64,000 bases of DNA from Halobacteriales archaeon SW_5_70_135 (GTDB lineage Archaea > Halobacteriota > Halobacteria > Halobacteriales > SW-7-71-33). Where the stretch lies: assembly GCA_003022865.1 (NCBI GenBank), contig PXSK01000009.1:16274-80273 (forward strand), read 5' to 3'. Shown here piece by piece: positions 1,472 to 57,749 of this stretch (its first letter is position 1; each line of letters opens with the position of its first letter). Both the position numbers and the translations under genes were made by a program. The notes under the pieces were generated by a model. It was given only the letters and a program-made list of their open reading frames with translations. It did no database searches and was not told the DNA's origin.

Positions 1472-1529
1472 ACCGCCTCTCGGAGGCGGGATCGCTTGTG
1501 CGTTGGCATCGCGGGCGCCGGGCGGGCGG

Positions 1530-2264: not shown

Positions 2265-2460
2265 GGAAACGGGGACCGGACGTGTCCGGCCGGTCCAGTC
2301 GGCACGCCCGTGGACGGCGCCGGCGCGGCCGAACCGCCCCGCCGCGGGACGGCCGTGACCTCGTCGGCCGCGCGGTCGGTCCGCGGCGTGCGCCAGTCCG
2401 TCGCGGGTACGCCGGTATAACCCTTGTGTGATCGGCGCCGTCCCGCTGACGGCCGTCGGC

Positions 2461-4245
2461 TCACTCCAGCTGGTGGTAGTCGAGCTCGTGGTCGGCGTCG
2501 AGGGCGGCCCGCACGGCCGGCGTCGGCTCGTCGAGTCGCTCCGTGTCGAGTCGGAGCGCGCCGACGCTGTCGCGCTCGACGACGGTCCGGCGGTCCCAGT
2601 CGGGGTCGGCCTCCGTGGCGTCGGCGCGGTAGTGAGCGCCCTTGGACTCCTCGCGGCGGAGCGCCCCGCGCAGCACCGCCTCGGCGACGGTCAGCGCGTG
2701 GCCGAGATTCAGTGCCGTCTCGAAGGCGCGACCGGTCCGGTCGCCGGTCGACAGCCGCTCGGCGCGCTCGCGCAGGTCCTCGAGGGCGGACAGTCCCGCC
2801 GCGAGCCCCTCGGCGTCGCGGCGGATGCCGACGTGGCTCTCCATCGTCGCGCGGAGCTCCTCGAACACCGCGGCGGGGTCGAAGGCGCCGTCGCGGTCGG
2901 TCGTCGCCTGGAGGTCCGCGAAGTGCGTTCGTGCCGCCCGGTGGGGAGTGGGTGTGGGAGTCGACGCCGCGCCGTCGAGTCGGTCGGCGACGGCGGCGCC
3001 GGCGATCCGACCGTACACCACGGTCTCGGCGAGGGAGTTGCCGCCGAGCCGGTTCGCGCCGTGGACGCCGGCCATCGTCTCGCCGACGGCGTACAGCCCG
3101 TCGACGTCGGTCTCGCCGTCGTCGTCGACGACGACCCCGCCCATGCCGTAATGGGCGGTGGGGGCGACCTCGACGGGCGCCGCCGCGAGGTCGACGCCGA
3201 GCGAGTCGAACCGCTCGTACATCCGGGGCAGACGCTCCCTGATGAACGCTCGGTCGCGGTGAGAGACGTCCAGACGGACGCCGCCGGCGTCGGTGCCGCG
3301 ACCGGCCGTGATCTCTCGGGCGATGGCGCGGGCGACGACGTCGCGGGCGTCGAGTTCCATCTGGTCCGGCGAGTACCGCTCCATGAACCGTTCGCCGTCG
3401 GCGTTGTAGAGGCGTCCGCCCTCGCCGCGGACGGCCTCGGTGACGAGTCGACCGTCCCATTCGTCGCCGTAGCGGTCGCCGACCATGCCCGTCGGGTGGA
3501 ACTGGACGAACTCCATGTCGGCGAGGCGAGCGCCGACCGACAGCGCCAGCGCGGGCCCGTCGCCGGTGTTCTCGTCGTCCCGGGAGGAGTGGCGGTCGTA
3601 GACGGAAGTGTAGCCGCCGGCCGCGAGGACCACCGCGTCGGCGTCGAACAGCAGGAACTCGCCGGTGTCCTGGTCGTAGCCGGCGGCACCGAGGACGCGA
3701 CCGCCCCGGTCCCGGCCGTCGGTGACCAGCCGCGTGACCGCGACGTGCTCGCGGTACGGCACGCCGAGCGAGCGGGCGCGGTCGATGAGTGTCTCCAGCA
3801 GCGACTCGCCGGTGTGGTCGCCGGCGAAGGCCGTCCGCCGGTACGACTGTGCGCCGAAGTATCGCTGGTCGATCGCGCCGTCCTCGGTGCGGGAGTAGTC
3901 CATCCCCCAGTCGTCGAGCTCTCGCAGGCGCTCGGGCGCCTCGCGGGCGACGGTCTCGACCTTCGAGGGCTCGTTGAGGAAGTGGCCCTCCTTCAGGGTG
4001 TCCGCGGCGTGGATCGTCCAGTCGTCCTCCGGGTCGCGGGTGCCGAGAGCGCCGTTGATACCCCCCCGGGCCCACGTCGTGTGGGCGTCACCGTGGGCGC
4101 GCTTGCCGAGCACGAGCACGTCCTCGGGCGGGACGCCGCGCTCGACCAGTTCGATCGACGCACGCACGCCGGCGGCGCCGGCGCCGACGACCAGCGCGCG
4201 CGGCGAAGTCGTCTCGTACTCGGGGGCAGCGTCGTGTGTGCTCAC
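2461..4245 (-). CDS. FAD-dependent oxidoreductase of the L-aspartate oxidase / succinate dehydrogenase flavoprotein family
   Basis: ALVVGAGAAGVRASIEL (dinucleotide fold), FVQFHPTG, RGEGG, HYGMGGV and GLYAVGE..GVHGANRLGGNSL are family hallmarks. The likely start is a GTG at 4245 (VSTHDAAPEY); the track ORF extends to 4320. There are no adjacent sdhBCD or nadAC genes, so the exact function is open. Confidence 0.8.
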   Translation of the reverse strand: MSTHDAAPEYETTSPRALVVGAGAAGVRASIELVERGVPPEDVLVLGKRAHGDAHTTWARGGINGALGTRDPEDDWTIHAADTLKEGHFLNEPSKVETVAREAPERLRELDDWGMDYSRTEDGAIDQRYFGAQSYRRTAFAGDHTGESLLETLIDRARSLGVPYREHVAVTRLVTDGRDRGGRVLGAAGYDQDTGEFLLFDADAVVLAAGGYTSVYDRHSSRDDENTGDGPALALSVGARLADMEFVQFHPTGMVGDRYGDEWDGRLVTEAVRGEGGRLYNADGERFMERYSPDQMELDARDVVARAIAREITAGRGTDAGGVRLDVSHRDRAFIRERLPRMYERFDSLGVDLAAAPVEVAPTAHYGMGGVVVDDDGETDVDGLYAVGETMAGVHGANRLGGNSLAETVVYGRIAGAAVADRLDGAASTPTPTPHRAARTHFADLQATTDRDGAFDPAAVFEELRATMESHVGIRRDAEGLAAGLSALEDLRERAERLSTGDRTGRAFETALNLGHALTVAEAVLRGALRREESKGAHYRADATEADPDWDRRTVVERDSVGALRLDTERLDEPTPAVRAALDADHELDYHQLE

Positions 4246-4757
4246 GTGTACGGACAGGCGACGGACGGGTATAAGCTGTCGCCTATCATGTTCGGGAACG
4301 GACGGCCGCGAGAGCGGCATCCGTCCGCGGACTGCCCGTCGGGGCCCGTCGGCCCCGGAATTTTACGACCACGCTCGCCGGCTCGCGCCCTCGCGACCCG
4401 GGCGGAGACCGTCGGACGGACGGGTGAGAGTGGAACCGTCGCCGATCACCGGCCGTCGGCGGCTCTCCCGAGTTTCACTTTCACTCCGGTTTGGCGAGGT
4501 TCATTAGGTATCGTTCCTTCCGACTGGGTTACGCGACGCCGGGCGACGAGCCCGGCGACGCAGACGAACGAAAGCAAGGGATCCCGTCGGTGTACCACCC
4601 GTCAGACACATCCACGGCGACGCCTGCCGACGTGTCGAGGACGGTACACCTGCGCGGTGGCGACGCGGGAGCAGGAGGTAATCGCATCCATGACACACAC
4701 AAAAGTGAGAACACACGAGCCGGTCGCCGTCGGGGCGACCCGGCGGGAGGTGAGCAG

Positions 4758-7700
4758 ATGAGCACGCACGACGAGTTGGGCGCCGAGGAGGTGCACCTGC
4801 CGGCCAAGCGCACGGACGGCGACACCGTAGCGGAGCGGCTGACGGACAACGCCTACCACAACATCCTGCCGGCCCGCTACCTGAAGAAGGACAGTCAGGG
4901 TCGGCCCGTCGAGCAGCAGGAGGACCTCTTCGAGCGGGTCGCGAAGAACATCGCCCTCGCGGAGGCGGTGTACGGCGCCGACGAGCCCGTCACCGTCGAA
5001 CCGGAGCAGGTGAAACCCGACCATCCACGACGCGGCGAACTCGCCGGCGAGGCCTTCGGCGTCCACTCGGACCGCTACGACGCGCCCGAGGCGCTGCCCG
5101 AGGAGTTGGACGAGGCCCGCGACCACCTCGCGACGACGGAGACCGACCTCACGGAGGGCAACGTCTCGAAGTTCGCCTACGACGCGGTCGTCCCCGCGCT
5201 CGACGACGAGCTGCGCGAGCACGTCGAGTCGGTGTACGCGGAGTTCCGCGAGACGATGGAGAATCTGGACTTCACGCCGAACTGTCGAGGCAGTCGATCC
5301 AGGTGAGCGGGTCTACGACGACGAGGACGGGCTGGCAGAGGTGACAGAGCGGTACAGAAACGGCGAGAAGGTCGTCCTCGAACTCGAAACCGAGGCCGGA
5401 TACTCCGTGCGGGCGACGCCCGAGCACCACTTCCGGGTGATCACGGCAGACGGCGAGTACGAGTGGCGACAATTGGGGGACGTGGAGCCGGACGACGTGC
5501 TCGCCCTGCAGAAGAACTTCCTCGACGACGACGGGAGGCGTACAAGTCTTACCGGGGGCTCGTCGAGTCACGAAACCGGTCGAAAGCGGGCCGGGTTCGC
5601 TCCGCCCGAGGAGATGACGCCAGCGCTCGCGGAGTGGCTCGGGCTGTACGTCGGCGACGGCACTGCCCGGGAGTCCGGCATCCGGGTCGCGTTCGACGAC
5701 ACCGACACTGACCTCGTCGATCACTGGGTCGAGCTCACGGAGTCCGTCTTCGGGTTCGAGTCGACGACCAGGGCGCGGAACGACGCCGCCTGCGCCGTCG
5801 GGCAGGCGAGCCGCCGGGACCTGTTCGACTTCCTCGACGAGAACGACCTCCTGAAGGAGACCTCGGACACGGCGACGGTGCCGGAGGCGGTGCTCCGGTC
5901 GGGCCGTCGTCCCGCCGCACGATTCCTTCGAGGACTGTTCGAGGCCGACGGGTCGGTCAACGAGCGGTCGATAGAGCTGTACACCCACAGCGAGGCGCTG
6001 GCGTCGCAGGTGCAGAAGCTCCTCCTGGGACTCGGCGTTCGCTCGAAGGTCCGCGAGAAGCGGGACGGACACCGAGTGACGATCCGGAAGAACGTCTGTG
6101 GAAACCGGTTCGTCGAGCGCGTCGGATTCATCAGCGACCGCAAGGTCGGGGAGGCCGAGCGGTTCGAGCGGGTCGCGGACGACGCCACGTCGGTGAAGAT
6201 ACCGAACCAGACCGAGCGACTCCACGAGTGGTTCACCGAGAGCGAACTGGGACTCGACGCTTACCGGGACCTCTCGCAGTTCCTCATCGATCCCGACTCC
6301 GATCACCACCAAGAGGTCGGCAAGGGGGTCTTCCAGCGGTACGCAGAGGAGTACCCCGAGCTGCGGGAGTCGCCGGTCGCCGAGCTGGTCGACCGCGACC
6401 AGATATACGAGCGGGTTTCGTCGGTGGCCGAGATCGGGACGATGGCCGTCGAGGACATGCGCGTCCCGCGGCGAGAGACCTACGTCGTCGAGGGGTTCGT
6501 GAGCCACAACAGCCCGACGCTGATGAACGCCGGCGACGAGCTCCAGCAACTCAGCGCGTGTTTCGTCTGCTCGCCCGACGACGACATCACCGACATCCAC
6601 GAGACCGCCCGCGAGGCCGCCGAGGTGTTCCAGTGTCTCACGGCGGACACCCGCGTTCCGGTCGACGGGAGGGGGCTCGTCTCGGTCGCCGACGTCGAGC
6701 CGGGCGACGAGGTCGTCCAGCGGGACGGCGACGGTCACCGCACCCGAGTCGTCGAGGAGACCCACGCCTACCACGACGCTCCCGTCCATCGAGTCGAGAC
6801 CGGGGCCGGACTGACGCTGACCGGCACGCCGAACCACGAACTCCTGGTCGGCGGCGAGTGGACGCGGATCGACGCGATCCAGGCAGGCGACGAGCTCTCC
6901 GTCCGGCTGGGCTGGCTCTCCGAGGACGCCGACACCCCGGAGCTCACGAGCGTCTCGACGGGCGGTCGGTGGGGCGAGACCCGGACCGTGTCCGACGAGG
7001 CGATCCGCGAGCTGCACGCCCGGGGACACTCGGACTACGAGATCGCGGAGGAACTCGGCTGCTCCGCCTCGACGGCCCAGCGCCGCCGCGCGAACGAGCT
7101 CAGTCTCGACCCGAACGGCACGGGTGGCCGCTCCCGAGGGAGCGTCTCGTTCGACCCCGACGAGTTCGAGCGCCTGTACGGAGAGGGTCACAGCGACGCC
7201 GGGATCGCCGACGAGCTCGGGATCTCGCCGGCGACGGTGCAACAGCAGCGCCAGAAGCAGTCGCTGGACCCGAACGGCGAGCCGGTCACGTCGGTCACGC
7301 AGCCGGCGACGCTGACCCCCGACCTCGCCGAGCTGTTGGGAATGTGGGTCGGCGACGGGTCGACGCACGAGGACGGAATCCGGCTGCATCTCCGCCGCGA
7401 GGAGACCCTCGAACACGCCGACCACCTCTGTCGGGAGCTGTTCGACGAGGGGCTCGACTGGCGGTTCGAGGACGGCTGTTACGACGCCGTGCTCCACAGC
7501 CACGAACTCAAGCGGTTCTGGCTCACCAACTTCGGCGACGCGAAACCCGACGCTCCCTCGGCGTCGGTGCCGGAGCAGGTGTGGGCGGCCGACCGCGAGA
7601 CGGTCGCCGCCTTCCTGCGGGGGCTGTTCTCGACCGACGGCAGCCTGCAGGACGGAAAGTACCCGCGTCTCTGGAGCGCCTCGGAGACGCTGATCGGGGA

Positions 7701-10700
7701 CGTTCAGCGCCTGCTGATCGGCCTCGGTGCGCCCGCTGTCCGGTGGGAGTACGACACCGACGAGCGGGACTACTACAACGTCGGTCCCATCGGCGAGCGG
7801 GGGCTCCGGACGTTCGCGGAGCGCGTCGGGTTCGTCGACGCACGGGACGGGGAGATGACCGAGAGGGTGTCCGAGTCCGGATTCCGAGACCTCTCCTGTG
7901 GCACTCTCGTCGACGAGCGGACCTGGCGAGTTCCCGTCGAGACCGTCGAGTCTGCCGGCACCGACACCGTCTACGACGTCACAGTCGCCGACGACCACGA
8001 GTACCTCGCCGACGGCGTCGTTTCGCACAACAGCGGCGGCGGAATGGGCTACGCCTTCTGGCGATTACGACCCTACGGCGACGCCGTCGGCTCCACCGGT
8101 GGCATCGCCAGCGGACCTATAACGTTTATGAGGACTTATGATCAATTATGTGAGACGATCGCCCAGGGCGGCGCCCGGCGGGGCGCGCAGATGGCGGTCA
8201 TGCGGGTCTCGCATCCGGACGTGATACAGTTCGTCCACGCGAAGAACAAGGACGTCTCGCTGGCCCGCACGCTGCGGCTGAACGACCCCGACGACTACAC
8301 GCACACCTCCTTCGTCGACGCGCTGGACGAGGCCCGCGAGCTCATCGACGAGGGAGGGCGCGTGCCCGAACATCTGCGCAACGCCGTCGAGGGACACCTC
8401 TCGAACTTCAACATCTCGGTCGGTATCACGGACGAGTTCATGGAGGCGGTGCGCGAGGGCGAGGAGTACACGTTCACGAACCCGCGCACCGGCGATCCCC
8501 ACGAGGCCACCCAGCACACGAAGGAGCTGTACGAGCGGTTCGGTCTCGGCGAGTACGTCGAGGTCGGCGAGCCGCTCGCCCTGCCGGCCGAGGAGCTGTG
8601 GGACCGCATCGTCGACGGCGCCCACGAGAACGGCGAGCCGGGCGTGGTCTTTCTCGACCGCATCAACGAGGAGCACTCCTTCCCGGTGGAGTCGACGTCG
8701 ACGGGTGACTCCTCCGAGTACGAGGTGCTCGCGACCAATCCCTGCTGTGCGGAAGGGACGCTGGTGAACACCCCGAACGGCTACCGCCCGGTCGAGGCGG
8801 TCGAGGAGGGCGACGAGATATCGACGGTGCTCGGGAGCGAGCCCGTCGAGGAGATCGAGGTCCACGAGGACTACCCCGTCCACCGCGTGGAGTTCAGCGA
8901 CGGCGGCTCGCTCGATGTCACCGCACAACACCAGTTCCACGTGCTCGACGGCAAGGGGGTCGAGACGGTCCCGCTCCACCAGGTCGAAGCGGGCGACCAC
9001 GTGCGGCTCCATCCGTCATCGCTCAACGAGGCTGGAACCGAGGAACAGTACGAGCGCGAACTGAAGCGTGGAGTCCTGATCGGCGACGGCTGTTACACTG
9101 AGACGGCCGTCGAGTGTGACAGCGTGACGATATCGACGAGCGCAGAGGACGAGGCGTACAACCGGCGGCTGCGGGAACTGTTCGGCGAGGGGGCGTTCCG
9201 CGCGGACGACGACAGTCCGGAGGGGAAGGCGAAGAAACTCCCTCTCTCGGACGGTGGTGCGGTCGTCCAGCAGCTCGACCTCGATCCCGCTCGGTCACCG
9301 GAGAAGAGCTTCGACCCCGCTGGGCTGAGGACCGAGGCGGAGGTCGTTGGGATGCTCGACGGCCTGCTGGCGTCCGACGGCAACGTCAACCTCTACGGCG
9401 ACCACCCCCAAATCCGGTGGGACACGTCCTCCGAGGAGCTCGCGAGTGCCATCCGGAAGGCGCTGCTGAGCGTCGGGATCCACGGTCGGATCTCGACGGT
9501 GACCAGCCACAAGCGCGGCGGCTCGATCAACGGGCGGAAGGTCAGCGCGAACAACCCGAAGTACACGGTCAACGTCTCCGGTTCCTCAGCGCGTCGCTAC
9601 GCCGGGACGAGTCGGATCGGGGAGATCCATCCCCGGAAGGGCGAGCAGATGCTGGAGCTACGGACCGGCTGGATGACCACGGGCAACACCTGGAAAGCCC
9701 AGATCGAGTCCATCGAGGCGCTCGAGGAGACGACGACGGTGTACGACCTCTACTGCTCCGAGTCGGACACCTGGATCACGGAGGGGTACGTGCAGCGGGG
9801 CTGCGGCGAACAACCGCTAATGGAGTACGAGGCCTGCAACCTCGGCCACATCAACCTCTCGACGCTGGCGGCCCACGACCGCCCGGACTGGCGAGTGTTC
9901 CGCGAGGAACACGGCGGCAGCCTGGAGGAGACGGTCGGGGACTTCCTCGACGCCGCCATCGACAACGAGGAGCTCGACCGTCGCATCGAGGTCGGCACCC
10001 GCTTCCTCGACGACGTCGTCACCATGAGCGACTTCCCGGTCGACCGCATCGAGCGGACGGTCCGTGACAACCGCAAGGTCGGCCTGGGCATCATGGGGCT
10101 GGCGCAGCTGTTCATCCAGCTCGGCGTCGAGTACGGCAGCAGCGAGGCCAACGAGATCGCCCGCCAGGTCATGCAACACATCAACCGCGGGTCGAAGAAG
10201 GTCTCCCGGGACCTCGCCCGCCGGCGCGGCTCGTTCAACAACTGGGCGGACTCGAAGTGGGCCTCGCCGACAGAGCACCGCGAGTGGTTCGAGAAACACA
10301 CCGGCCTGGACGCCGACGAATGGGCCGACGGCTATCCGATCCGGAACCACAACACCACGACGATCGCCCCGACGGGATGTGTCAAGGAGAACTCGCTGGT
10401 GTCGACTGACGAGGGGCTTCGCCCGATCGAGGACTTGGACAGTACCACTGCGGAGTTCGAGCAGTGGGACGAGATCGAGATCGGCGTGTCGACCGACGGT
10501 GGCACGAAGACCGCGACCGCCGTCTACGACAACGGCTTCGCCGACGTGCGGCGTATCGAGACCGAGGGTGGGTTCAGCGTCACATCGACGCCGAATCATC
10601 GGTTCCGGACGATCAGCGAGGACGGCGAGTACGCCTGGAGGGAAGCCGACGAGTTCGAACCCGGAGACAGTATCGTCCTCCAGCGGAACACCTTCGACGG

Positions 10701-13002
10701 TGGGTCGCGTGCCACCCTCGACACGAGCGAGTGCGAGAACTACTACCACAACACCGACGAGAGCCTCGAACTGCCGGCGACGATGACCCCTGAACTCGCC
10801 GAGTTCCTCGGCTACTTCATGGGTGACGGCTATGTCCACGACGAAGTCGGCGTCAAGCTGGTCGTCGGATCGGATGCAGAGGAACTCGACACTCGGCTCC
10901 GACGTCTCGGTGAGTCACTGTTCGGCGTGGCGCCGACCGTCGAGGGCCGCGATACACGTCACGTCCTCTGTTTCGACGGTCGTCACCTCCCTCGATACTT
11001 CGAGGACAACGGCTGGAAGAGGGACGACGGAAACGCAGGCGAGGGAGCCGCCAGTGCGTTCGTCCCCGAGGAGGTACTTCGCGGCGACGAGGCGGTCGCG
11101 AAGGCGTTCCTCCGGGGTCTGTTCGAGGCCGACGGAACAGCCTCTCGGAAGGTGGAACTGTCGACCGTCTCCCCAAGGCTCGCGGACCAGGTTCAGACAC
11201 TCCTGCTGTCACTGGGCTGTGTGTTCGTCCGGGACACGCTGGAGACTGCCGGCCTGGACGACCACTACGGTGACCGCCCCCGTCACAGGGTTCGGGGGGC
11301 GAACAGGCGCGAAGACAAGCGGTTCGTCGACGAGATCGGGTTCGTTACGAAGTCGACGAAGTTCGACCTGACTCCACAGTCGTACAAGAACGACACGTAT
11401 CCGCCCGCGGTCGTCGAGGCGCTCCGCGAGGTCGACGGGTACGAGTCGGTCAGCGCGGCCGTCAAGCACCGCGTCAACCAGTCGCCGATCGACGACTCCG
11501 TCTCTCGGAAGCTCGTCAGAGACGTCGAGCGAGAGACTGGCGAGACGGTTCGTCTTGACGGGCGGCGGTTGACCGAGTTCTACGTCGCCACCGTAGCGGA
11601 CGTGACCGAGGAGATGGCGTACACGAAGGACATCAGCGTCCCCTCGAACAACACCTACGTCGCAGACGGGTTCGTCACGCACAACACCACCTCGATGGTG
11701 GGCAACACCTCCGGTGGCTGTGAGCCCATCTTCAACGTCGCCTACTACAAGAACGTCAGCGAGGACGTTCAGGGCGACGAGATGCTGGTGGAGTTCGACG
11801 ACTACTTCCTGCGGGTGCTGGAGGCGAACGACATCGACGTCCAGGCCGCGAAGCGCGAGGCCCAGGAGCTGATGGCCGAGAACGACTTCGACGGCGTCGA
11901 GTCAATGGACACCGTCCCGGACGCGATCGGCGAGCTGTTCGTCACCACGGGCGACCTGAGCGCCCACGAGCACGCCGCCGTGCAGTGTGCGCTGCAGGAG
12001 GGCGTGGACTCGGCGATCTCAAAAACTGTCAACTCTCCAAAAGAGGCCACACTAGAGGACGCGAAGGACGCCTTCGAGTACGTCCACCGCAACGGCGGCA
12101 AGGGCGTCACCTACTACCGCGACGGCACCCGCTCGAAGCAGGTGCTCACCACGCGGGCGGAGAACACCGAGTTCGCCGACGCGCTGCCCGAGGACGAGGC
12201 CGAGGCCGCCGAGGTGCTCGTCGACCAGATCGAGGAGATCTTCGGCGGCGTCGAGGCCTTCCTCGGTCGCGACGTCGTCGGCGGTCTGGTCGACATGGAG
12301 GAGCTACTCGGCGGCAGCCGTACTGTCGCCGACCGTCCGGACACGCTCACCGGCGTCAGCCAGCGCATCGAGACCGGCTACGGCAAGCTGTACGTCACGA
12401 TCAACGAGGACCCCGAGACGGGCGACCCGTTCGAGGTGTTCGCCAACATCGGCCACTCCGGCGGCTTCACCAACTCCTTCACGGAGGCGATCGGGAAGAT
12501 CACCTCCTCCGCCCTGCGGGCGGGCGTGCCGCCGGAGGAGATCGTCGACGAGCTCTGTGGCACCCGCTCGCCGAAGGTCGCCTGGGACAAGGGCGAGCAG
12601 ATCCAGTCGATCCCCGACGCCATCGGCACGGCGCTGCGGCGCTACCTCGACGGCGACGTCGACCGCGCGGTGCCCCAGCAGACCACCATCGACGAGATGA
12701 CCGACGAAGACGCCGAGACCGGAGCCGACGCCGAGACCGGAGCCGTCGCGAGCGCGAGCACGCGCTCGGACTCGGACCCAGACCCGGACCCGGACGCGGG
12801 CGCCGAGCCGGAGTCGGAGTCGGAGTCGGAGTCGGAGGACGACCCCGCCGCGCCGGAGACCGACGGTGGCGTCGCGACCGCGGACAGTCAGGCCGTCGTC
12901 GACGCCGGCGAGAACCCCGAGTGTCCCGAGTGTGGCGCGATGCGGCTCTACTACTCGGAGGGCTGCAAAACCTGCGATAGCTGTGGGTGGAGCGAATGTT
13001 AA
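4758..13002 (+). CDS. nrdJ: Adenosylcobalamin-dependent (class II) ribonucleotide reductase NrdJ, interrupted by four inteins. The reading frame is broken at 5283-5306, so it may be a pseudogene or carry an assembly indel
   Basis: The N-extein is in frame 0 (ATG 4758, MSTHDELGAEEVHLPAKRTDGD...NLDFTPN). The rest is in frame 1 (track ORF 5341..13002). Extein motifs are SPTLMNAG, SGGGMGYAFWRLRP, TNP/CGEQPL, TTIAPTG/TTSMVGNTSGGCEP and SKTVNSP, followed by an acidic tail and a C-terminal CPECG..CKTCDSCG zinc ribbon. Confidence 0.85.
5283..6510 (+). mobile_element. nrdJ intein 1 (LAGLIDADG type), inserted at FTPN|SPTLMNAG; N-terminal splicing block missing or out of frame
   Basis: A Cys codon at 5283 follows ..FTPN. 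LAGLIDADG blocks are LAEWLGLYVGDG and FLRGLFEADGSV, block B is TPEHHF, and the C-terminus is VEGFVSHN|S (cac aac at 6505-6510). Confidence 0.8.
6634..8031 (+). mobile_element. nrdJ intein 2 (LAGLIDADG type with a tandem HTH insert), inserted at EVFQ|SGGGMGY
   Basis: It starts CLTADTRVPVDG (tgt at 6634). Blocks are TPNHELLV, LAELLGMWVGDG and FLRGLFSTDGSL. It ends VYDVTVADDHEYLADGVVSHN|S (aac at 8029-8031). Confidence 0.9.
8743..9801 (+). mobile_element. nrdJ intein 3 (LAGLIDADG type), inserted in the catalytic TNP|CGEQ motif; non-canonical C-terminus ..YVQRG
   Basis: It starts CCAEGTLVNTPNG, which aligns with the CFAKGTNV-type block A. Other blocks are RGVLIGDGCYTE and MLDGLLASDGNV. It ends TTVYDLYCSESDTWITEGYVQRG|CGEQPL. 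Confidence 0.75.
10378..11685 (+). mobile_element. nrdJ intein 4 (LAGLIDADG type), inserted at TIAPTG|TTSMVG
   Basis: It starts CVKENSLVSTDEG (tgt at 10378). Blocks are TPNHRFRT, LAEFLGYFMGDG and FLRGLFEADGTA. It ends SNNTYVADGFVTHN|T (aac at 11683-11685). Confidence 0.9.
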
Positions 13003-18571: not shown

Positions 18572-19675
18572 TTACTCCGTAGCGGACTCGACGCCGGTGA
18601 TCTCGAACCTGGCGCCGCCGCTGCTCCCGTCGGTAAGACGGATCTCCCAGTCGTGTGCCTCGACGACCTGTTCGACGACGCTCAGTCCGAAGCCGGTCCC
18701 CTCGGGACCGGGGGAGTAGCCGGCCTCGAACACGGCCGTGCGTTCGTCGGCGGGGATACCCGGCCCGTCGTCTTCGATGTAGAAGCCACCGTCGGTCTCT
18801 CCGACGGTGACCGAGACGTCCGTCCCGCCGCAGTTCACGGCGTTCGAGAGGAGGTTCTCGACCAGCTGACGGAGGCGGTCGCGGTCGGCGTCGACCTGCT
18901 GTGTCGTGTCGACGTGCAGCGTGGCGTCGTTCGGCTCCAGGTTCGTCCAGCAGAACTGGGTGAGTCGTGCCAGATCGACAGTCTCGCGGTCGAGCGCCCT
19001 GGTCCCGACCAGTGCGAACGTCAGCAGGTCGTCGATCAGGCGCTCCATCCGCTCGTGTGCGGCCGCGATCTCTCGCAGGGACTCGCTGTCCCGTTCCTTG
19101 CGAACGAGTTCGAGGTGCCCCCGGGCGACGGCCAGAGGATTTCGGAGGTCGTGGCTGACGACCGACGCGAACTGGTCGAGCCGCTCCACCTGCTGTTCCA
19201 GCTCCTGTTCGCGCTCGATGCGATCGAGCGCGGTCCTCGCGTGACTGACGAGCAGCTCCGCCAGCTCGACGTCGTCCTCGTCGAACGCGGCTTCGGTCGT
19301 ACTGACCGCCTGAAAGACGCCGTGCTCACCGATAGGAACGCTGAACCCCGACCGGTAGCTCGGCTTGGCGGGGTCGGTCCCGTCGTCCGGCTCGACGCGG
19401 TCGACGATCCGGGACTGTCCGGACTGGTAGGATTCGCCCGCCAATCCCTGCGTGAGTCGCATCCGACGGCTGCCGTCCGGCGGCGCGTCGTCCGAGGTGG
19501 CGTACGGGACGAGCCACTCGCCTTCCCGAATCACGATCGTACAGAGGCTGAACTCCAACACTCTCGCTGCCGCGTCGACGGTCAATGCACAGACGTCCTC
19601 GACGGAGTCCTGGGACTGAAGCTCGGTCGCAATGCCGTGAAGAGCCTCGATCGTGTTCCCGGACGACTCCACCAT
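18572..19675 (-). CDS. Sensor histidine kinase (GAF - HisKA - HATPase_c)
   Basis: It has the H-box FASVVSHDLRNPL, the N box LRQLVENLLSNAV, and G boxes DDGPGIP and GTGFGLSVV. The N-terminal region is GAF-like. Confidence 0.88.
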   Translation of the reverse strand: MVESSGNTIEALHGIATELQSQDSVEDVCALTVDAAARVLEFSLCTIVIREGEWLVPYATSDDAPPDGSRRMRLTQGLAGESYQSGQSRIVDRVEPDDGTDPAKPSYRSGFSVPIGEHGVFQAVSTTEAAFDEDDVELAELLVSHARTALDRIEREQELEQQVERLDQFASVVSHDLRNPLAVARGHLELVRKERDSESLREIAAAHERMERLIDDLLTFALVGTRALDRETVDLARLTQFCWTNLEPNDATLHVDTTQQVDADRDRLRQLVENLLSNAVNCGGTDVSVTVGETDGGFYIEDDGPGIPADERTAVFEAGYSPGPEGTGFGLSVVEQVVEAHDWEIRLTDGSSGGARFEITGVESATE

Positions 19676-19834
19676 ACCGAACCAGAGACAGGAGCGACAA
19701 AACCACTTTCGCCGAATCCGCCCCGCCCGCTCGGCACGGCCGCCGAGAACGCCTCGGCGCCCGTCGGGGGACGACTGCCGGACACCGACGCCGTCCCCGG
19801 CGTGACCACGGTCGCCGGTCGATCGAGGGGTGAG

Positions 19835-20335
19835 CTACCGTGTCGGGCGTTCGAAAGTGGTCGTGGTCGTGTCCCCGTGGGCGCGTTCCACCACGACGAC
19901 CGTGTCGGGCAGCTCGTCGCTCATCGTGACCCGAACCCGGTACGTGTCCCAGCTCAGGTTGCTAGTACATCCCCTCCCCAGCCAGACGCTGTCCCGGAAG
20001 CCCTCCCGCTGGGGGCCGGTCCCGACGACGACGTGGAGGGTGTCCGTCCGGGCGTAGTACGTCGCCCGCTCGAGGACGGCACGGTCACAGCTACTCGACC
20101 CGACCGGCATGCGACCGATCACCTCGACGCTGTGCTCGCTGTCGGTGACCTCGACCGCTGGCGGTCGACGTTCGGCCCCGGAGGGTCCGTCGTAGCGTTC
20201 GAGGCCGTCGACCGCCGGCGGGTCGAGTTCGAACTCGCGACCGGCGATCGGGGACGGGTCGGGGACCGTCTGCCGGAAGCCGACGACGCCGAGCCCACCG
20301 ACCCCCAGCGCGTAGAGGAACCGACGCCGGTTCAT
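19835..20335 (-). CDS. Tat-secreted hypothetical protein
   Basis: MNRRRFLYALGVGGLGVVG is a twin-arginine signal. The ORF is 166 aa. Confidence 0.6.
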   Translation of the reverse strand: MNRRRFLYALGVGGLGVVGFRQTVPDPSPIAGREFELDPPAVDGLERYDGPSGAERRPPAVEVTDSEHSVEVIGRMPVGSSSCDRAVLERATYYARTDTLHVVVGTGPQREGFRDSVWLGRGCTSNLSWDTYRVRVTMSDELPDTVVVVERAHGDTTTTTFERPTR

Positions 20336-20717
20336 CGTGACAGCCGGAGTACTGGTATGATAAATTCGCTACGACCACGGGGACGGATCGGCCGCCGGTC
20401 GTCGTCCGGTCACCTGCTGGCGGGGCAGCCTGGTCCGGCACGCGACACTGGAGGTCGTCACGGTCCCGGCGTCGCCGAGTGAGGCGAGCGGACTCCGGGG
20501 ACGACGGCGAGTCGACACCGCCGGCGAGAGTACGGGGCTGTGGCGTCGAGGTTCGGCCGCGGTCCCAGACACGCGCCGTAGTCGCGGGGCGTACTCGACG
20601 GTTCGTGTACGGACACGTCGGCGTCGGGCCGGGAGCTCGCTCGACTCACTCCCGCTTCTCGCCCCGCGAGTCGCCGCTGTCGTCATCCACAAGCCCGAGC
20701 GCCGAGTACCGTCGCCG

Positions 20718-21992
20718 ATGGACGATCCCTTCCGCTTCGAGTTCCGGCCGGGGGCGATTCGGTACGGCACCGGCTGCGTGCGCTCGCTGGGCGAGGAGGT
20801 CGCCGCGCTCGACGCCGACCGCGTGCTCGTCGTCTCGGGGCGGACCGTCGGCACGACCGACGCGGTCGTCGACCCGGTCCGGGCGGGGCTGGGCGAGCGA
20901 CTCGTGGACGTGCTGGCGGTGACGACACCCGAGAAGCGCGTCTCGGCGGCCGCCGCCGTCGCGGAGCGGGCCTGCGAGACCGAGGCCGACGCCCTGGTCG
21001 CCGTCGGCGGCGGCTCCAGCCTGGACGTGACGACGGTGGCCGCTGCCCTGCTGTCGACGGGGACCGACGACGAGGCGGCGGTGCGGGCCGTACTGGAGAC
21101 TGGCGGCGTCGCCGTCGGCGAGTCGGTGCCGCCGATCGTCGCCGTGCCGACCACGCTCGCGGGGGCGGGCCTCACGCAGGTCGCCGGGATCGGCGCCGAC
21201 CCGGCGTCGGTCGGCGATGACGGGGCGGTGGCACACGGCGGCGTCTCCGACCCGGCGCTGATGCCGTCGGCGCTGTTCTACGATCCGGAGCTGTTCCGGA
21301 CGACGCCGGAGGGCGTGCTGTTGCCGTCGGCGATGAACGGCTTCGACAAGGCCGTCGAGGCGGTGTACGCCCGGACGGCGACGCCGGTGACGGACGCGAC
21401 AGCGCTGCGCGCGCTGCGACTGCTGCGAGCGGGGCTGCCGGCGCTGGGCCGCGGCGACCGGAGCGACGCGACGCTACGGCGGGCGGTCGTCGGGACGGTA
21501 CTCGCACAGTACGGTGTCTCCCGGCCCGACGCCGGCACGCTGTCGGTGCTGCACGCCTACGGACACGCCCTCTCGCGGCCGTACGAGTTCCAGCAAGGGG
21601 CCGCCCACGGGCTGGTGGCGCCGGCCGCGCTCTCGCACCTGCTCGGCGAGGTCGACGCCCGCCGGCGGACGCTCGCGGAGGGACTGCGCGCCGGCGCCGC
21701 CCTCGCGGAGCGGGAGGACGGCGACGTCGACGAGGGGCGCGACCCGGACGCGGTCCCGGCCCGCGACGTCGACGACGGTCGTGACCCGGCGACGGTCGTC
21801 GTCGAGGAGGTGCGGGCGGTGCGGGACGGACTCGGGCTGGACCGGCGACTGCGGGGCGTCCCCGGCGTCGAGCGCGACCACCTGCCGGAGGTGGCGCGAG
21901 CGACCGTCGAGGACGGTGTAATGGGGAACGCGCCAGCGGGCTACGAGCCGACGCCGGCAGCCGTCGAGAGGGTGCTCGAGTCGGTGTGGTGA
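20718..21992 (+). CDS. Iron-containing (group III) alcohol dehydrogenase family protein
   Basis: FEFRPGAIRYGTG..., LVAVGGGSSLDV (the GGGS motif) and AYGHALS are typical of the Fe-ADH fold. Confidence 0.8.
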   Translation: MDDPFRFEFRPGAIRYGTGCVRSLGEEVAALDADRVLVVSGRTVGTTDAVVDPVRAGLGERLVDVLAVTTPEKRVSAAAAVAERACETEADALVAVGGGSSLDVTTVAAALLSTGTDDEAAVRAVLETGGVAVGESVPPIVAVPTTLAGAGLTQVAGIGADPASVGDDGAVAHGGVSDPALMPSALFYDPELFRTTPEGVLLPSAMNGFDKAVEAVYARTATPVTDATALRALRLLRAGLPALGRGDRSDATLRRAVVGTVLAQYGVSRPDAGTLSVLHAYGHALSRPYEFQQGAAHGLVAPAALSHLLGEVDARRRTLAEGLRAGAALAEREDGDVDEGRDPDAVPARDVDDGRDPATVVVEEVRAVRDGLGLDRRLRGVPGVERDHLPEVARATVEDGVMGNAPAGYEPTPAAVERVLESVW

Positions 21993-51242: not shown

Positions 51243-54200
51243 ATGACCGATTCGGGGCAGACGGACCTCGGCGGATTCGGGGACACCGGGGACGAAAGCG
51301 TGGAGAGCGACCGCGACGCGGCGGCGGAGGCCCGGGCGGTCGCCGGGCCGGGTCAGGACACGGACCGCGTCGTCGACCCCGACCGCGAGGCCGTGCCCGA
51401 GGCGACGGGCACCGTCGAGATGGCCGTCACGCAGGTCGACTACACCGTCGTCGGCAGCGGCCGCGACGAGCGACCGATCGTCCACGTCTTCGGTCGGACC
51501 GCCGACCGGGAGCGCGAGCACGTGAAGGTGCTCGGCTTCCGGCCGTACTTCTACGCGCCGACGGCGACGCTGTCGGACGAGAAGCTGGACCACGACCGGA
51601 TCACCGGCTGGGAGGAGACCGACGAGGACGGCGAGCCGTACGAGTCGATCCGAGGGGAGCATCTGACGAAAATATTCGCCCGGACGCCGCGTGACGTCGG
51701 GCAGATGCGCGACGAATTCGACCACTACGAGGCGGACATCCTGTTCCCGAACCGTCTGCTCATCGACAAGGACATCCGCGGCGCCGTCCATGTGCCGGAG
51801 CGTCGTGACGACGACGGGACGATCCTCGTCCCACACGAGGAAGTCCGGGGCGGCGACGTGAGCGTCGCGCCGCGGGTGCTGACGCTCGACATCGAGGTGG
51901 ACGACCGCCGGGGGTTCCCGGAGGACGGCGAGGAGCCGATCGTCTGCATGACGACCCACGACTCCTACGACGACGAGTACGTGCTGTGGCTGTACGAGGC
52001 GCCGGACTGGGACGGAAGCACGGGCGTCGACGACGCGGCACGGGGGACGGTCACCGACGGCGGTGCCGCGAGCACGAACGGCCGGGCCGGGGACGATTCC
52101 GAGCCGGACGCCGACCTCGACCCGCGACTCGCGGACTACGAGCCGATCCGCGGCGAGATCGACGTCGACGTGCGCACGTTCGAGGAGGAGGCGGCGATGC
52201 TCGACGCCCTGGCGATGTATGTCGAACGAAAGGGCCAGGACGTCATGACGGGCTGGAATTTTGAAGATTTTGATATGCCGTACCTCCTCGACAGAATGGA
52301 GGAGTTGGACGGTCGAGCCGGCGTCGACCGTGACCTCTCCGTCGAGCGACTCTCCCGCATCGACGAGGTGTGGCGCTCGGGCTGGGGCGGCCCGGACGTG
52401 AAGGGCCGCGTCGTCTTCGACCTGCTGTACGCCTACAAGCGGACGCAGTTCACCGAACTGGAGTCGTACCGGCTCGACGCCGTCGGCGAGATGGACAACC
52501 TGCGAGACGTCGAACTCTGCGTGGAGATCGACCGCGAGCAGGACGTCATCCCGTTCTGGATGGAGGTCGCCTCCTTCGTCGGCTGTCTGCTGGAGGACGC
52601 CCCTACGCCCGGCGACGCCGTCGACCTGTACGTGCTCCACGAGGCCCACGGGGAGTTCGCCCTGCCCTCGAAGGGCCGACAGGAGTCCGAGGAGTTCGAG
52701 GGTGGCGCCGTCTTCGACCCGATCTCGGGGGTGCGGGAGAACGTCTCGGTGCTCGACCTGAAGTGCTTCAGCGGCGATACGGACGTTCTCACACCCGACG
52801 GCGTCCGCAACGTCCGCGAGCTGGAGGTCGGCGATCCGATCTACACGCTCGACCCGGAGACGTTCGAGTGTGAGGTGAAACCGGTCGCCGAGACCCACGA
52901 GTACCACAATCGGTACGGTGAGTTGCACCACCTGAGCGGGAACACGCACGACCTCAAGATCACCGAGAACCACCGGCTGCTGGTCTCGAAGGAGCGCGGC
53001 TGGGACGACCGGACGCCCGACGACTTCGAGTTCAGCGAGTACCGGAACGTTCCGGAAACCGAGCGGTTCGCGTTCCCGACCCACGAGCCGATGGACGGCG
53101 CCGTTCGAGACGAGTTCCGGCTGTACGAGCACGTCGAGGGCGGACACGCCGTCGTCTACGCACACGACGGACTGACGGCGCTCCGTGCGGCGGTGCCGGC
53201 CGGCATCGAGTCGGAACTGGACTGGGCGAACGGGACCTCCAGGCTCGCCGCCACCGAGGAGAAGACGGGGAAGTACCTGGTCCCGATCGAGACGTACCGT
53301 CAGCACCGGGAGCAGATCGAGGCGCAGGCCGACGAGGTGTTCCTGAAGTACGACCGCGGCCACGCGGAGACGCCGTTGTCGTTCGACACGGACGACTGGC
53401 TCGAACTCGTCGGCTGGTTCGTCACCGAGGGGAGCTACGTCCGCGAGTCCCCCGGGATCGTGCTCCACCAGCAGGACGAGGACGGACGAGCGGCGATCCG
53501 CGACCTGCTCGAACGAACGGGATTGAACCACAGCAGCGACGACGACCGATTCCAGATCTCGAATCGGTTCCTCCACGATTGGTTCCAGCAGCACTGCGGT
53601 GACGGCCACGCGGAGAAACACCTCCCGGAGTGGGTGTTCGAGCTCGACGCGGGCCACCTGCGGGGGCTGCTAGAGACGCTCGTCGACGGGGACGGTAGTC
53701 GAGCCGACAGCGGACTGCGGAAGTTCTGGACCAGAAGCGACCGGCTGAAGCGGGACGTCGCCCGACTCGCGGTGCGGTGTGGCGAGAAGCCGACGGTTTC
53801 GAAGCAGGGTGACGGAACGTGGTACGTCTCGATCGGCAAGCGAGGCTCGTTCAACCGGAGTGTGAACGCCACCATGGAGGAGCACGACGAGACCGTCCAC
53901 TGCGTCACCGCCGAGGACAACCACGTGGTTCTCGCCGGTCGGAACGGGCAGTTCCAGTGGGTCGGGCAGTCGCTGTACCCAATGTCGATGGTGACGATCA
54001 ACGCCTCGCCGGAGACCCGCGTCGGCGAGGAGTACGACGACCCCACCTACCGTGCCCCCAACGGCCAGCGGTTCCGAGAGGAACCGGACGGCATGATCCG
54101 GACGATGGTGGACGAACTGCTCGAAGAGCGAGAGGTCAAGAAGGACGCCCGCGACGACTACGAGCCGAACAGCGAGAGGTACGAGCGATACGACCGCCAG

Positions 54201-57200
54201 CAGGCTGCTGTCAAGGTAATTATGAACTGCTTCACGCCGGACACGGACGTGCTCACCCCCGACGGCGTGCGGAACGTCCGCGATCTCGAAGTCGGCGACG
54301 AGGTGTACTCCCTCGACCCGGACACGATGGAGATGGAGCTAAAGCCCGTCGAGGAGACCCACGAGTATCCCGACTACCGCGGCGAGCTGATCGACATCGA
54401 GACCGGCAAGATCGACCTCCGGGTGACGCCGAACCACCGGATGCTCGTTCGGAAGGCCGAAACGAACGGGATCGCGTGGGACGAGGACGAGTACCGCTTC
54501 GTCGAGGCGGGCGACCTCGACGATGCGACGAACTACCAGCTCCCGCACGGCTGGGATGGACCCGACGGTACGGAACTCGATAGGGTGGATCTGACTGAGT
54601 TACTCGACGGAGAGTACGAGGTGTGGGCCAACAACGACGTACACGGTCACACGCTCGCGGCAGAGGTGGGACAGTATCCCGACAAGGTGGTCCGCCAGGC
54701 AGTCGACGACACGGGGTACGTCTTCTCCGCGGAGGAATTCGCGGCCAACCGTGAGTACCTCGACGAGGACTGCTCGGAGTTCTACGTCCACGGCGAGCGT
54801 GGACGCAAGTGGATACCGAGATGCTACGACGGAGACGACTTTCTCGAACTGCTCGCCTGGTACATCACGGAGGGGAACGTACACACGTCCACCGAAAAGC
54901 AGTTTGGAGACAACTTCCGAGGCAGTTCGACAACGATAAATATCGCTCAGGAGGCGATCCCGGACGGGGGACAGGGCGACGACCACGCCGCCATCGGTGA
55001 ACTCCTGGAGCGTATGGGATTCGAGCCGTACAGCGATCAGCGAGGCTACCAGTTCACCTCGAAGCTGCTCGGGGAGTGGCTCGAAGGCAACTGCGGTGCC
55101 GACAGCTTTGAGAAGCGGATCCCCGAGTTCGTGTTCGATCTCACCCGGCGGCAGAAACGGCACTTCCTCGAGACGCTCATCGCGGGCGACGGTGACCGGC
55201 AACGGAACTCCTGGCGATACAGCACCGCGAGCGAGGAGCTACGAGACGACGTGCTCCGACTCTGTGTCCATCTCGGTCTCACGGCCAATTACGGTGAGGA
55301 CAGTGACGTCTACCGGATCCACGTCACAGAGGATACGAAGAACACGCTCCGGATGCACCGCAGCGCAGGCCGGAGCACCGCCGAGGACGGCGTTTACTGC
55401 GTCACGGTCGCCGACAACCACACGCTACTGGCCGGACGGAACGGCACGTTTCAGTTCGTCGGTCAGTCGCTCTACGGCGTTCTTGGATGGGATCGCTTCC
55501 GCCTGTACGACAAGGACATGGGTGCCGCCGTAACCGCAACAGGTCGTTCGGTTATCGACTTTACCGAGGAGGTGTCCAGTGAGATGGGCTACCAGGTGAC
55601 CTACGGCGACAGCGTGACGGGTGATCGGCCGGTCATGGTCCGCGACCCAGGCGATCGAGTCCAGATCACTCCCATCGAGAGTCTGTACGAGCAGGTGGCA
55701 ACAGATACCGAGCCGGATCTGCTGATCACGGCCGACGGCGGGGCGGTCGCCAAGACGACCGTAGGTAAGGAACGAGCCACTCCCGACGGCTGGGAGGCGT
55801 TGTCAATGAACGAGCGAGGTGAGGCGGAGTGGCAGCCGATAGAGGAAGTGATACGTCACGAGACCGACAAAGAGGTGGTCAACCTCCAGCACGAGTTCGG
55901 AGAGTCGACGACGACGACGGATCACTCGTTCGTCGTCAGCGACGACGGCGGGTTCACCGAGGCCTCCCCAAAGGAGGTTGACGAACCACTTCGTATTCCG
56001 GGGGTTCCGGCGGTCGAAACTGCGGAGGCAGTCGACCTGTACGAGGTGCTAAACGGGTACACGAGAGAGTATGGGGACGGGCGTAGCGTCGGGTCGGAGA
56101 ACGCGGAGACAAAGGTGAAGCGAGTCCACACGGACGGAGAGCGTGTCTGGTTCGGACACGAGCATCATCACGACCTCGACGAGACCGTTACCCTGCGACG
56201 CCACGTCGACCTCGACGGAGAGGACGGCGTATCTCTTGTACGACTGCTCGCGGCGTACGCCGCGGAGGGCAGCGCGTCGACGATAGAGACGACCGACTCA
56301 AAGTTCGGCGCGAGTATAGCCTCCTCGGACCGCGAGTGGCTGGAGACGCTGCAGGAGGACTATCATCGGCTGTTCGACGGGGCGATCGCCAGTATCACTG
56401 CGAGCGACGCCGATGACGAACGCCGTCTGGAGGACGGCGAGGACGGCGAAACCACCTACGAGGACACGACGGAGAAGCTCCAGATGATGAACGAGCTTTC
56501 GGCGGTGTTCTTCCGGGAGTTCGCCGGACAGACCTCCCGTGGGAAGCAAGTTCCGTCACTCGTCTACCACCTGTCGGACGATCTCCAACGACTGTTCGTC
56601 GAGACACTCGTCGAAGGTGACGGCTCACGGAAGTTCCGTCGGTACACGGGGGAGGACAGCGAGCGGAACTTCGACTACGAGACGGCGAGCCGAGAGCTCG
56701 CTGCGGGTCTGTCGATGCTGTTGACCCAGCGCGACCGAAAGCACTCGCTGAAGTACCGTGACGAAAAAGAAAGATACACGATCCGCACGTGCGACTACTA
56801 CCGCTCTGAACGCGATCTCGTGATTCGAGAAGTCGTCCACGACGGCTACGTCTACGACCTCAGCGTCGCAGAGAACGAGAACTTCGTCGACGCAGTCGGC
56901 GGAATCGTGCTCCACAACACGGACTCAGTGATGCTCGAACTCGGTCCGGACGTCTCGAAGGAAGAGGCCATCGAGCAGTCCTTCGAGATCGAGGAGCGGA
57001 TCAACGAGTCGTACGACGAGTTCGCCAGCGGGCAGTTGAACGCCGAGACGCACCGCTTCGAGATCGAGTTCGAGAAGCTCTACCGTCGGTTCTTCCAGGC
57101 GGGCAAGAAAAAGCGGTACGCCGGTCACACCGTCTGGAAGGAGGGAAACGACGTCGACGACATCGACATCACCGGCTTCGAGTACAAGCGCAGCGACATC

Positions 57201-57749
57201 GCGCCGGTCACGAAGAAGGTCCAGCAGGAGGTCATCCAGAAGATCGTCCACGGCGGGGACCGCGAGGCGGTGAAGGAGTACGTCGCCGGCGTCGTCGACG
57301 ACTTCCAGGCCGGCGAGATGGACCTCGACGACGTCGGTATCCCGGGCGGCATCGGCAAGCGACTGGACGCCTACGAGACCGACACCGCCCAGGTGCGGGG
57401 CGCGAAGTACGCCAACCTCCTCCTGGGGACGAACTTCGGGCGCGGCTCGAAGCCCAAACGGGTCTACCTGGAGAAAAACGGCGTCCACCCGGACTACTTC
57501 CAGCGGATCGACGAGGACGTCCAGGGGGACGCCTGGTACGACGACTTCCGCGAGGACGTCTCCGAGGGGAACGGCGTCGTCTGCTTCGAGTACTCGGACC
57601 AGGTGCCCGAGGAGTTCCAGGTCGACTGGGAGAAGATGCTCACGAAGACACTGAAGAAACCGATCAGCCCACTAATCGAGGCGATCGGGCTCTCATGGGA
57701 CGAAGTAGTCAACGATCACGACCAGAGCGGCCTGGGCGACTTCATGTGA
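51243..57749 (+). CDS. polB: Family B DNA polymerase (PolB1) interrupted by three inteins
   Basis: Motifs present: Exo I LTLDIEV, Exo [15 protein letters not shown], motif A VLDLK|SLYP, motif B KVIMN|SLYGV and motif C YGD|TDS. The ATG at 51243 ([13 protein letters not shown]) lies inside track ORF 51126..57749. Confidence 0.92.
52764..53969 (+). mobile_element. polB intein a (motif A site), LAGLIDADG type, C-terminal Gln
   Basis: It starts [17 protein letters not shown]. Blocks are [14 protein letters not shown] and [12 protein letters not shown]. It ends [25 protein letters not shown]|SLYP. Confidence 0.88.
54228..55466 (+). mobile_element. polB intein b (motif B site), LAGLIDADG type, C-terminal Gln; a paralogue of intein a
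   Basis: It starts [17 protein letters not shown]. Blocks are [14 protein letters not shown] and [12 protein letters not shown]. It ends [25 protein letters not shown]|SLYG. Confidence 0.88.
55611..56918 (+). mobile_element. polB intein c (motif C YGD|TDS site), Ser1 intein with LAGLIDADG domain
   Basis: It starts [15 protein letters not shown]. Blocks are [22 protein letters not shown] and [12 protein letters not shown]. It ends [23 protein letters not shown]|TDS. Confidence 0.88.

Follow-up and report, generated by a model that had tools for sequence, protein, structure and literature searches.

The DNA polymerase B genes (polB) of haloarchaea have three known intein insertion sites, all of which are occupied in Haloquadratum walsbyi polB (PMC3024317, PMC10643990, PMC4104785). 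The alleles at these sites, polB-a, polB-b and polB-c, were catalogued in a survey in which haloarchaeal inteins clustered by site and ectopic invasion was rare (Soucy et al. 2014, PMC4071816), and the PolB-c intein of Haloferax volcanii homes actively in vivo (Naor 2011 and Robinzon 2020, as cited in PMC10643990). Splicing with a terminal Gln has been shown for the PolII inteins of Pyrococcus abyssi, P. horikoshii and Methanoculleus and for the ribonucleotide reductase (RNR) intein of Chilo iridescent virus (CIV) (PMC4031507, PMC8175363), and C-terminal variants with Gln or with a residue other than His are documented in functional inteins (PMC4031507). Here we describe the polB precursor gene of Halobacteriales archaeon SW_5_70_135, a metagenome-assembled genome (MAG), in a window of 64,000 nucleotides (nt) of contig PXSK01000009.1, in which all positions given below are counted from the first letter. 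The gene carries three inteins, a, b and c, at polymerase motifs A, B and C. An earlier note, made from the sequence alone, had observed that inteins a and b resemble each other and both end in Gln, and had proposed that one of them jumped recently between two sites of the same gene. Our analysis gives us good confidence that this polB encodes a replicative polymerase with three catalogued haloarchaeal inteins, and that inteins a and b are old paralogues with no recent duplication or conversion between them.

Results

Three inteins interrupt the catalytic motifs of polB

The polB precursor gene (positions 51243-57749, + strand), identified from its open reading frame (ORF) and translation, belongs to the family B replicative DNA polymerases of Halobacteria and encodes 2168 amino acids (aa) plus a stop codon, of which 917 aa make up the extein after splicing. 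Its product matches NCBI protein BRD13_01740 of the same MAG at 100% identity; that protein is labelled 'hypothetical protein', and its record lists precomputed Pfam matches to DNA_pol_B, DNA_pol_B_exo1, Hint families and LAGLIDADG_3. When the three inserts are removed, the 917-aa family B polymerase keeps its motifs whole (A, VLDLK-SLYP; B, KVIMN-SLYG; C, YGD-TDS). Intein a (polB-a allele, 402 aa; 52764-53969, + strand) lies in motif A at DLK/SLYP, intein b (polB-b allele, 413 aa; 54228-55466, + strand) in motif B at KVIMN/SLYG, and intein c (polB-c allele, 436 aa; 55611-56918, + strand) in motif C at YGD/TDS. Inteins a and b both run from Cys1 to a Gly-Gln end with Ser at +1, and intein c has the canonical form, Ser1 to His-Asn with Thr at +1. 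Together they occupy 3753 of the 6507 nt of polB (57.7%), a total and a set of boundaries that match those of the earlier note.

The boundaries of all three inteins are fixed independently by homologues with empty sites. We compared 120 homologous PolB precursors, locating the site flanks by local alignment, and found that uninserted homologues read DLK/SLYP, IMN/SLYG and YGD/TDSV, which bears out the presence of three inteins. Occupied sites across the set begin and end in the same way as those of the window, and the nucleophiles are invariant: Cys1 and Ser+1 in 76 a inteins, Cys1 and Ser+1 in 114 b inteins, and Ser1 and Thr+1 in 84 c inteins, every one of which (84/84) is of the Ser1...His-Asn type. 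Sites a, b and c are all occupied in 34 of the 120 precursors, a and b in 36, b and c in 44, and a and c in 6; at 54 genomic loci from named genomes, site a is empty in 48 and site b in 28. The earlier note had allowed that its boundaries might be wrong and that an Asn might terminate inteins a and b, an alternative excluded by the empty alleles together with the Gln ends of 76/76 a and 104/114 b inteins.

Compared with the haloarchaeal polB-a, -b and -c alleles described before (InBase; Naor et al. 2011, PMC3024317; PMC4071816), the inteins of the window occupy the same host gene at the same points in motifs A, B and C, are likewise large and equipped with LAGLIDADG domains, and are 61-73% identical to same-site representatives. 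We see no essential difference, and all three are likewise present together in those 34 of 120 relatives; inteins a, b and c are ordinary members of the catalogued alleles, and this is one further genome that has them. The H. volcanii PolB-c intein shares with intein c its site (YGD/TDS), its Ser1...His-Asn type and its length of about 437 aa, and has no bearing on a and b. Some PolBs of the set (P0006, P0021, P0078, P0085, P0099, P0114 and P0115) have an extra intein with Hom_end and Hom_end_hint domains (PF05204, PF05203), presumably the polB-d allele, which brings P0006 and P0021 (2613-2634 aa) to four inteins in one gene.

In each of the three polB inteins, a homing endonuclease with two LAGLIDADG motifs would lie nested within a HINT splicing domain. 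The predicted endonuclease core of intein a spans 53400-53699 (+ strand), with motifs at 53400-53435 and 53667-53699 whose acidic residues, in 'TEG' and 'GDG', are kept in at least 90% of the 76 homologues; that of intein b spans 54843-55196 (+ strand), with motifs at 54843-54878 and 55164-55196 that are conserved in its homologues. The motif ends, each with a conserved acidic residue, read FVTEGS and VDGDGS in a, YITEGN and IAGDGD in b, and AAEGS and VEGDGS in c. Block B (TxxH) is TENH in a and TPNH in b, and block F has Cys at position 4 and His at position 13. At least 90% of homologues keep blocks A, B and F together with the two LAGLIDADG motifs, a pattern to be expected if splicing and homing are under selection.

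Domain profiles recognize the three inteins to different degrees. Pfam LAGLIDADG_3 scores 31.3 for a, 26.3 for b and 21.3 for c (cut-off 22.5); Hint_2 scores 35.0 for b and 24.1 for a, the latter below the cut-off of 28.4; and Intein_splicing scores 39.1 for c against a cut-off of 35.8. TIGR01445 likewise accepts b (30.3) and leaves a (21.6) below its cut-off of 24.5, and TIGR01443 (intein_Cterm) matches intein c only, its failure on a and b fitting their atypical Gly-Gln end. An AlphaFold model of intein a, built from a two-sequence alignment, was too poor for use of the fold (predicted local distance difference test 49.9, predicted template modelling score 0.33), and a PDB sequence search with intein a alone returned just one bacterial intein-like domain (E 1e-3). 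Among solved structures, the profile of a and b described below comes nearest in sequence to PI-PkoII, the Pol-2 intein of Thermococcus kodakarensis (PDB 2CW7/2CW8), where the match (E 4.6e-10) is confined to some 96 residues at the second LAGLIDADG motif and the splicing domain has no detectable match. PI-PkoII likewise interrupts a family B polymerase at motif B and carries a LAGLIDADG endonuclease, but it begins with Ser and ends with His-Asn.

Inteins a and b diverged long ago

Homology between inteins a and b extends from end to end (BLASTP E 4e-74, 36% identity; 39% in a MAFFT alignment); the two are collinear throughout, linker and both LAGLIDADG motifs included, and are far nearer to each other than to intein c, which gives only local matches to a and b (E 5e-7 and 1e-9). 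Amino-acid identity is 76% over the first 46 residues and 72% over the last 25, and falls to 28% over the 319 aligned residues of the middle; nucleotide identity reaches 77% in the first 138 nt and 75% in the last 75 nt, chance being about 29% at this base composition. The earlier note was right to place the two in one lineage, to see their likeness in the DNA, and in its reading of their N- and C-terminal peptides; its description of them as about 70% identical paralogues holds for the termini but fails for the inteins as wholes and above all for the middle.

The age of this relationship can be judged from 70 haloarchaeal PolBs that have both inteins. Identity between a and b averages 33.4% within a genome (range 28.5-36.7%) and 33.0% between different genomes (25.7-38.5%), whereas within a site it averages 65% among a inteins (minimum 47%) and 69% among b inteins (minimum 45%), so that the two sets of values are cleanly separated, with the highest a-b identity (38.5%) below both within-site minima (45-47%). 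The earlier note had itself named equal likeness across haloarchaea as the mark of an ancient shared origin, and by that criterion its recent jump is refuted. A phylogeny, which it had suggested as a check, groups the inteins by site rather than by genome, in agreement with Soucy et al. 2014 (PMC4071816): with 76 inteins from site a, 114 from site b and 15 from site c in the tree, bootstrap values are 100/100 for the site-a clade, 100/100 for site c and 71/100 for site b. This and the other trees reported here were built by neighbour-joining (NJ) from Kimura-corrected distances, and are unrooted trees of divergent sequences. Since a and b group with same-site inteins (65-69% within a site against 33% across), they are standard polB-a and polB-b alleles.

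Gene conversion within polB could in principle have kept the splicing termini of two old paralogues alike, which would produce the observed drop from 76% and 72% at the ends to 28% in the middle. The first 46 residues of intein a (52764-52901) also lean this way, being the most b-like of the 76 a inteins (0.667 against 0.600 +/- 0.025, z about 2.7), with b-like states at variable positions 14, 17, 18 and 30. Such concerted evolution should nevertheless raise likeness within genomes, and same- and different-genome identities between a and b are equal in both termini (0.613 and 0.607 over the N-terminal 46 aa; 0.651 and 0.651 over the C-terminal 25 aa). Codon identity is not raised in the termini either: identical residues have identical codons in 25/35 cases in the N-terminus (0.71), in 11/18 in the C-terminus (0.61) and in 54/88 in the middle (0.61), and the longest identical DNA run between a and b is 12 nt. 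To account for the pattern it is enough that blocks A, F and G are under purifying selection, and we consider continuing conversion improbable. The b-like N-terminus of intein a we regard as chance or as retained ancestral states.

A recent intragenic jump, in which an intein with its endonuclease was copied from one Ser-Leu-Tyr (SLY) site to the other in this polB or in a close ancestor, fares worse still and strikes us as very improbable. It would draw on the SLY context and the similar DNA core common to both sites, on termini that are 72-76% identical with a likeness visible in the DNA, and on the fact that, of the 70 same-genome pairs, the pair in the window has the highest a-b identity in its first 46 aa. 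Against this, full-length identity is just 36%, as for a and b of unrelated genomes; intein a is 61-73% identical to the a inteins of other genomes and falls within the fully supported site-a clade; and differences at synonymous sites are not depleted. Neither codon identity nor identical runs between a and b in polB gave any sign of recent duplication or gene conversion, and the likeness of their DNA follows from protein conservation and codon bias (G+C content at third codon positions, 0.82-0.89).

A profile of the window's inteins a and b, searched against 1.84 billion representative sequences, gave 10,426 matches at E <= 1e-3, 362 of them at E <= 1e-30. That a and b are unrelated and became alike at their termini because both splice beside Ser-Leu-Tyr, as the identical +1 to +3 extein and the peaks of similarity beside the junctions might suggest, is scarcely credible, given their collinearity over the whole length (E 4e-74) and the retrieval by this profile of a single large family with a CF..DT start, Cys at F:4 and a GQ end, whose members are spread over several hosts and insertion sites, some of them standing before CDK and not SLY.

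The Gly-Gln end is the rule in this lineage

A C-terminal Gln is uncommon among inteins at large. Both a and b do end in Gln, as the earlier note had reported, and their penultimate residue, which it had missed, is Gly in place of the usual His. All 76 a inteins of the comparison set end in Gly-Gln; among the 114 b inteins, 103 end in Gly-Gln, one in Ser-Gln and 10 in Asn. More widely, Gly-Gln ends 48 of the 61 full-length relatives with parsable junctions (50%-identity representatives), so that a Cys-Phe-x-x-Asp-Thr start, Cys at block F position 4 and the Gly-Gln end may be taken together as the hallmarks of the lineage. The note's term 'rare variant' thus suits inteins in general and not polB-a, polB-b or their wider lineage, where Gln is the rule. 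Judged from these alignments, the Gln end of both a and b is a family trait due to shared ancestry, and makes no link between the two copies of this genome. Although both fail the His-Asn expectation for block G, by analogy with the functional inteins that end in Gln their Gly-Gln end is an accepted intein variant and no ground for exclusion.

The Asn-ending b inteins (P0015, P0024, P0029, P0031, P0032, P0055, P0062, P0069, P0073 and P0102) include five, P0024, P0029, P0031, P0032 and P0055, that are shortened to 353-372 aa, which suggests that endonuclease domains may be decaying in some lineages.

The insertion sites share a short core

The same +1 to +3 extein, SLY, follows both inteins, as the earlier note had stated (SLYP after a, SLYG after b), for these three residues belong to the polymerase motifs themselves, DxxSLYP in A and KxxxNSLYG in B. 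In the window, the codons after intein a are TCG CTG TAC (53970-53978, + strand) and those after intein b TCG CTC TAC (55467-55475, + strand), the two differing in the third base of Leu only. The note had also advised comparing the DNA around both sites. Empty sites a and b of the same genome share the core TGAAn/TCGCTnTAC, 12 of 14 nt around the junction, and identity between them is 59% from -7 to +10 and 24% outside (28 genomes). The 5' half of homing site a, CTCGACCTGAAG (52749-52763, + strand), contains the core TGAAn common with site b, as delimited by the comparison of 48 empty a and 28 empty b alleles. It is plausible that this common core served as a foothold for a rare ectopic event, although a causal role for it is conjecture.

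One candidate mark of occupancy was rejected: SLYPMSM is not always found in intein-a-bearing alleles as opposed to SLYPMCM in empty ones, for 59 of 76 intein-bearing alleles read MCM. Separately, the Ser+1 codon is AGC or AGT in 25/76 empty site-a and site-b alleles (loci L001-L054; for example L003, L005, L006 and L008-L012) and in 0/26 occupied alleles, where Ser+1 is encoded by TCN and in most cases by TCG. A Fisher test on both sites pooled gives p 3e-4, uncorrected for phylogeny, and tests on each site alone give 0.07 and 0.13; the AGC/AGT codons of empty alleles could reflect homing-resistant alleles or co-conversion of the flanks.

Relatives at other sites and in virus-like polymerases

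Among the 61 parsed relatives, 42 lie at the motif-B site, 11 at the motif-A site and 3 at a third site (DMMxAF/CDK, with Cys+1), which in their low-GC family B polymerases (P0126, P0135 and P0138) precedes motif A by about 130 residues; P0126 has a Cys-Phe...Gly-Gln intein of the lineage at motif B as well. The haloarchaeal a inteins and six further motif-A inteins form one group (bootstrap 87%), to which the third-site clade is joined with a value of 88%.

The motif-A inteins P0145 and P0166 fall elsewhere, grouping with the motif-B intein P0142 in 100% of NJ bootstraps and away from the other motif-A inteins. P0145 and P0142 are 57% identical (55% by full-length BLASTP), whereas P0145 reaches at most 34% with any member of the main a clade, and the exteins of their PolBs are collinear homologues with 44% identity. 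The DNA next to the two occupied sites has nothing in common beyond the codons for Ser-Leu/Val-Tyr. The virus-like PolB with motif-B intein P0142 is encoded at 10001-14383 of contig L055, and that with motif-A intein P0145 at 1362-5717 of locus L056. L055 (43.9 kb) is virus-like in its many small ORFs, its RNR, HNH and MazG genes, and an interrupted RtcB. For P0145, a tblastn search against phage genomes gave as the nearest isolate PolB that of Halogranum tailed virus 1 (37.6%), from which we infer that its host is probably a virus resembling this one; none of the isolate haloviruses in the phage-genome collection carries a P0145-type intein. Within the limits of unrooted distance trees and metagenomic sequences, P0145 and P0142 look like an independent and younger switch between the a and b sites.

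On L055, a LAGLIDADG_2 ORF apparently divides the RtcB ligase gene (19010-21705) into one part of 488 aa and another of 101 aa, perhaps as an intron or as an inserted free-standing homing endonuclease. In the window, a second gene with several inteins, at 5341-13002 (+ strand), encodes a 2553-aa RNR with Ribonuc_red_lgC and TSCPD domains; Pfam gives three Intein_splicing and four LAGLIDADG_3 stretches, and candidate His-Asn junctions before Ser or Thr stand at residues 389, 896, 1670 and 2114. Its inteins show weak local matches only to inteins a and b of polB.

Discussion

The likeness of inteins a and b is best explained by an old event and not by a recent one. We propose that the two are old paralogues of a single PolB-specialised intein lineage, a member of which would have moved in ancient times between the motif-B and motif-A sites; the endonuclease domains would since have diverged to 28% identity, the splicing termini staying at 72-76%. 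Each allele would then have spread on its own among Halobacteria by homing and gene transfer, and this genome would simply have one of each. After translation, each intein is predicted to excise itself and rejoin the polymerase motifs, and since the inteins sit inside the catalytic motifs of a replicative polymerase, they must splice. For a and b, C-terminal cleavage, the third step of splicing, would presumably use cyclisation of Gln (to an aminoglutarimide) instead of Asn, as in the Pyrococcus PolII and CIV RNR inteins.

Several points weigh against parts of this account. The monophyly of the site-b inteins reaches just 71/100 in an unrooted distance tree of divergent sequences, and a very short, old conversion tract at the N-terminus of intein a is conceivable though unlikely. 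That the ancient move went from b to a is no more than a suggestion, drawn from the larger number of clusters at site b (42 against 11) and again on unrooted trees. The 12-of-14-nt core shared by sites a and b is far shorter than a typical LAGLIDADG site, such target sites being 14-40 bp (PMC3024317). Finally, the splicing and homing functions of a, b and c are inferred from conservation and from position within catalytic motifs.

These results extend what was known in two respects. No supported link between allele clusters was reported by Soucy et al. 2014 (PMC4071816), whereas here polB-a and polB-b are clearly related (E 4e-74) and both end in Gly-Gln; we found no published statement that the two are sister lineages or share this end in the searchable open-access literature, though one may exist elsewhere. 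The Gln-terminated inteins described so far, from the PolII of Pyrococcus abyssi, P. horikoshii and Methanoculleus marisnigri and the RNR of Chilo iridescent virus (PMC4031507, PMC8175363), share with a and b the replacement of Asn by Gln, but differ in that their host is the PolD large subunit or RNR and that they are mini-inteins or belong to other lineages.

Taken more broadly, the Cys-Phe...Gly-Gln lineage of PolB may have moved repeatedly between the motif-A and motif-B sites and the third site upstream, in cellular and viral polymerases alike, with the Ser-Leu-Tyr codons as a common foothold, a reading that we hold only tentatively and whose clearest case is the virus-like pair. The general mechanism of the earlier note, site switching through the shared Ser-Leu-Tyr context, is plausible as an ancient event, with indirect support from the second, younger a/b switch in virus-like PolBs. 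Switching between the a and b sites thus looks real for this intein lineage, yet not recent in this genome.

For the archaeon itself, our findings turn a 'hypothetical protein' into a replicative polymerase with three standard inteins, which tidies its annotation and leaves no recent event that needs explanation. For the intein family, the Gly-Gln end, with neither the penultimate His nor the terminal Asn, is fixed in hundreds of inteins on whose splicing the replication of the cell depends. We know of no splicing assay of a polB-a or polB-b intein, and these inteins are good subjects for studying the mechanism of Gln cyclisation under high salt. On at least two occasions the lineage has apparently changed its insertion site while staying in the same gene family, though such changes are thought rare (Soucy et al. 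2014). If this is true, the virus-like pair would offer a natural before-and-after case of homing endonuclease retargeting, in which the change of specificity could be mapped.

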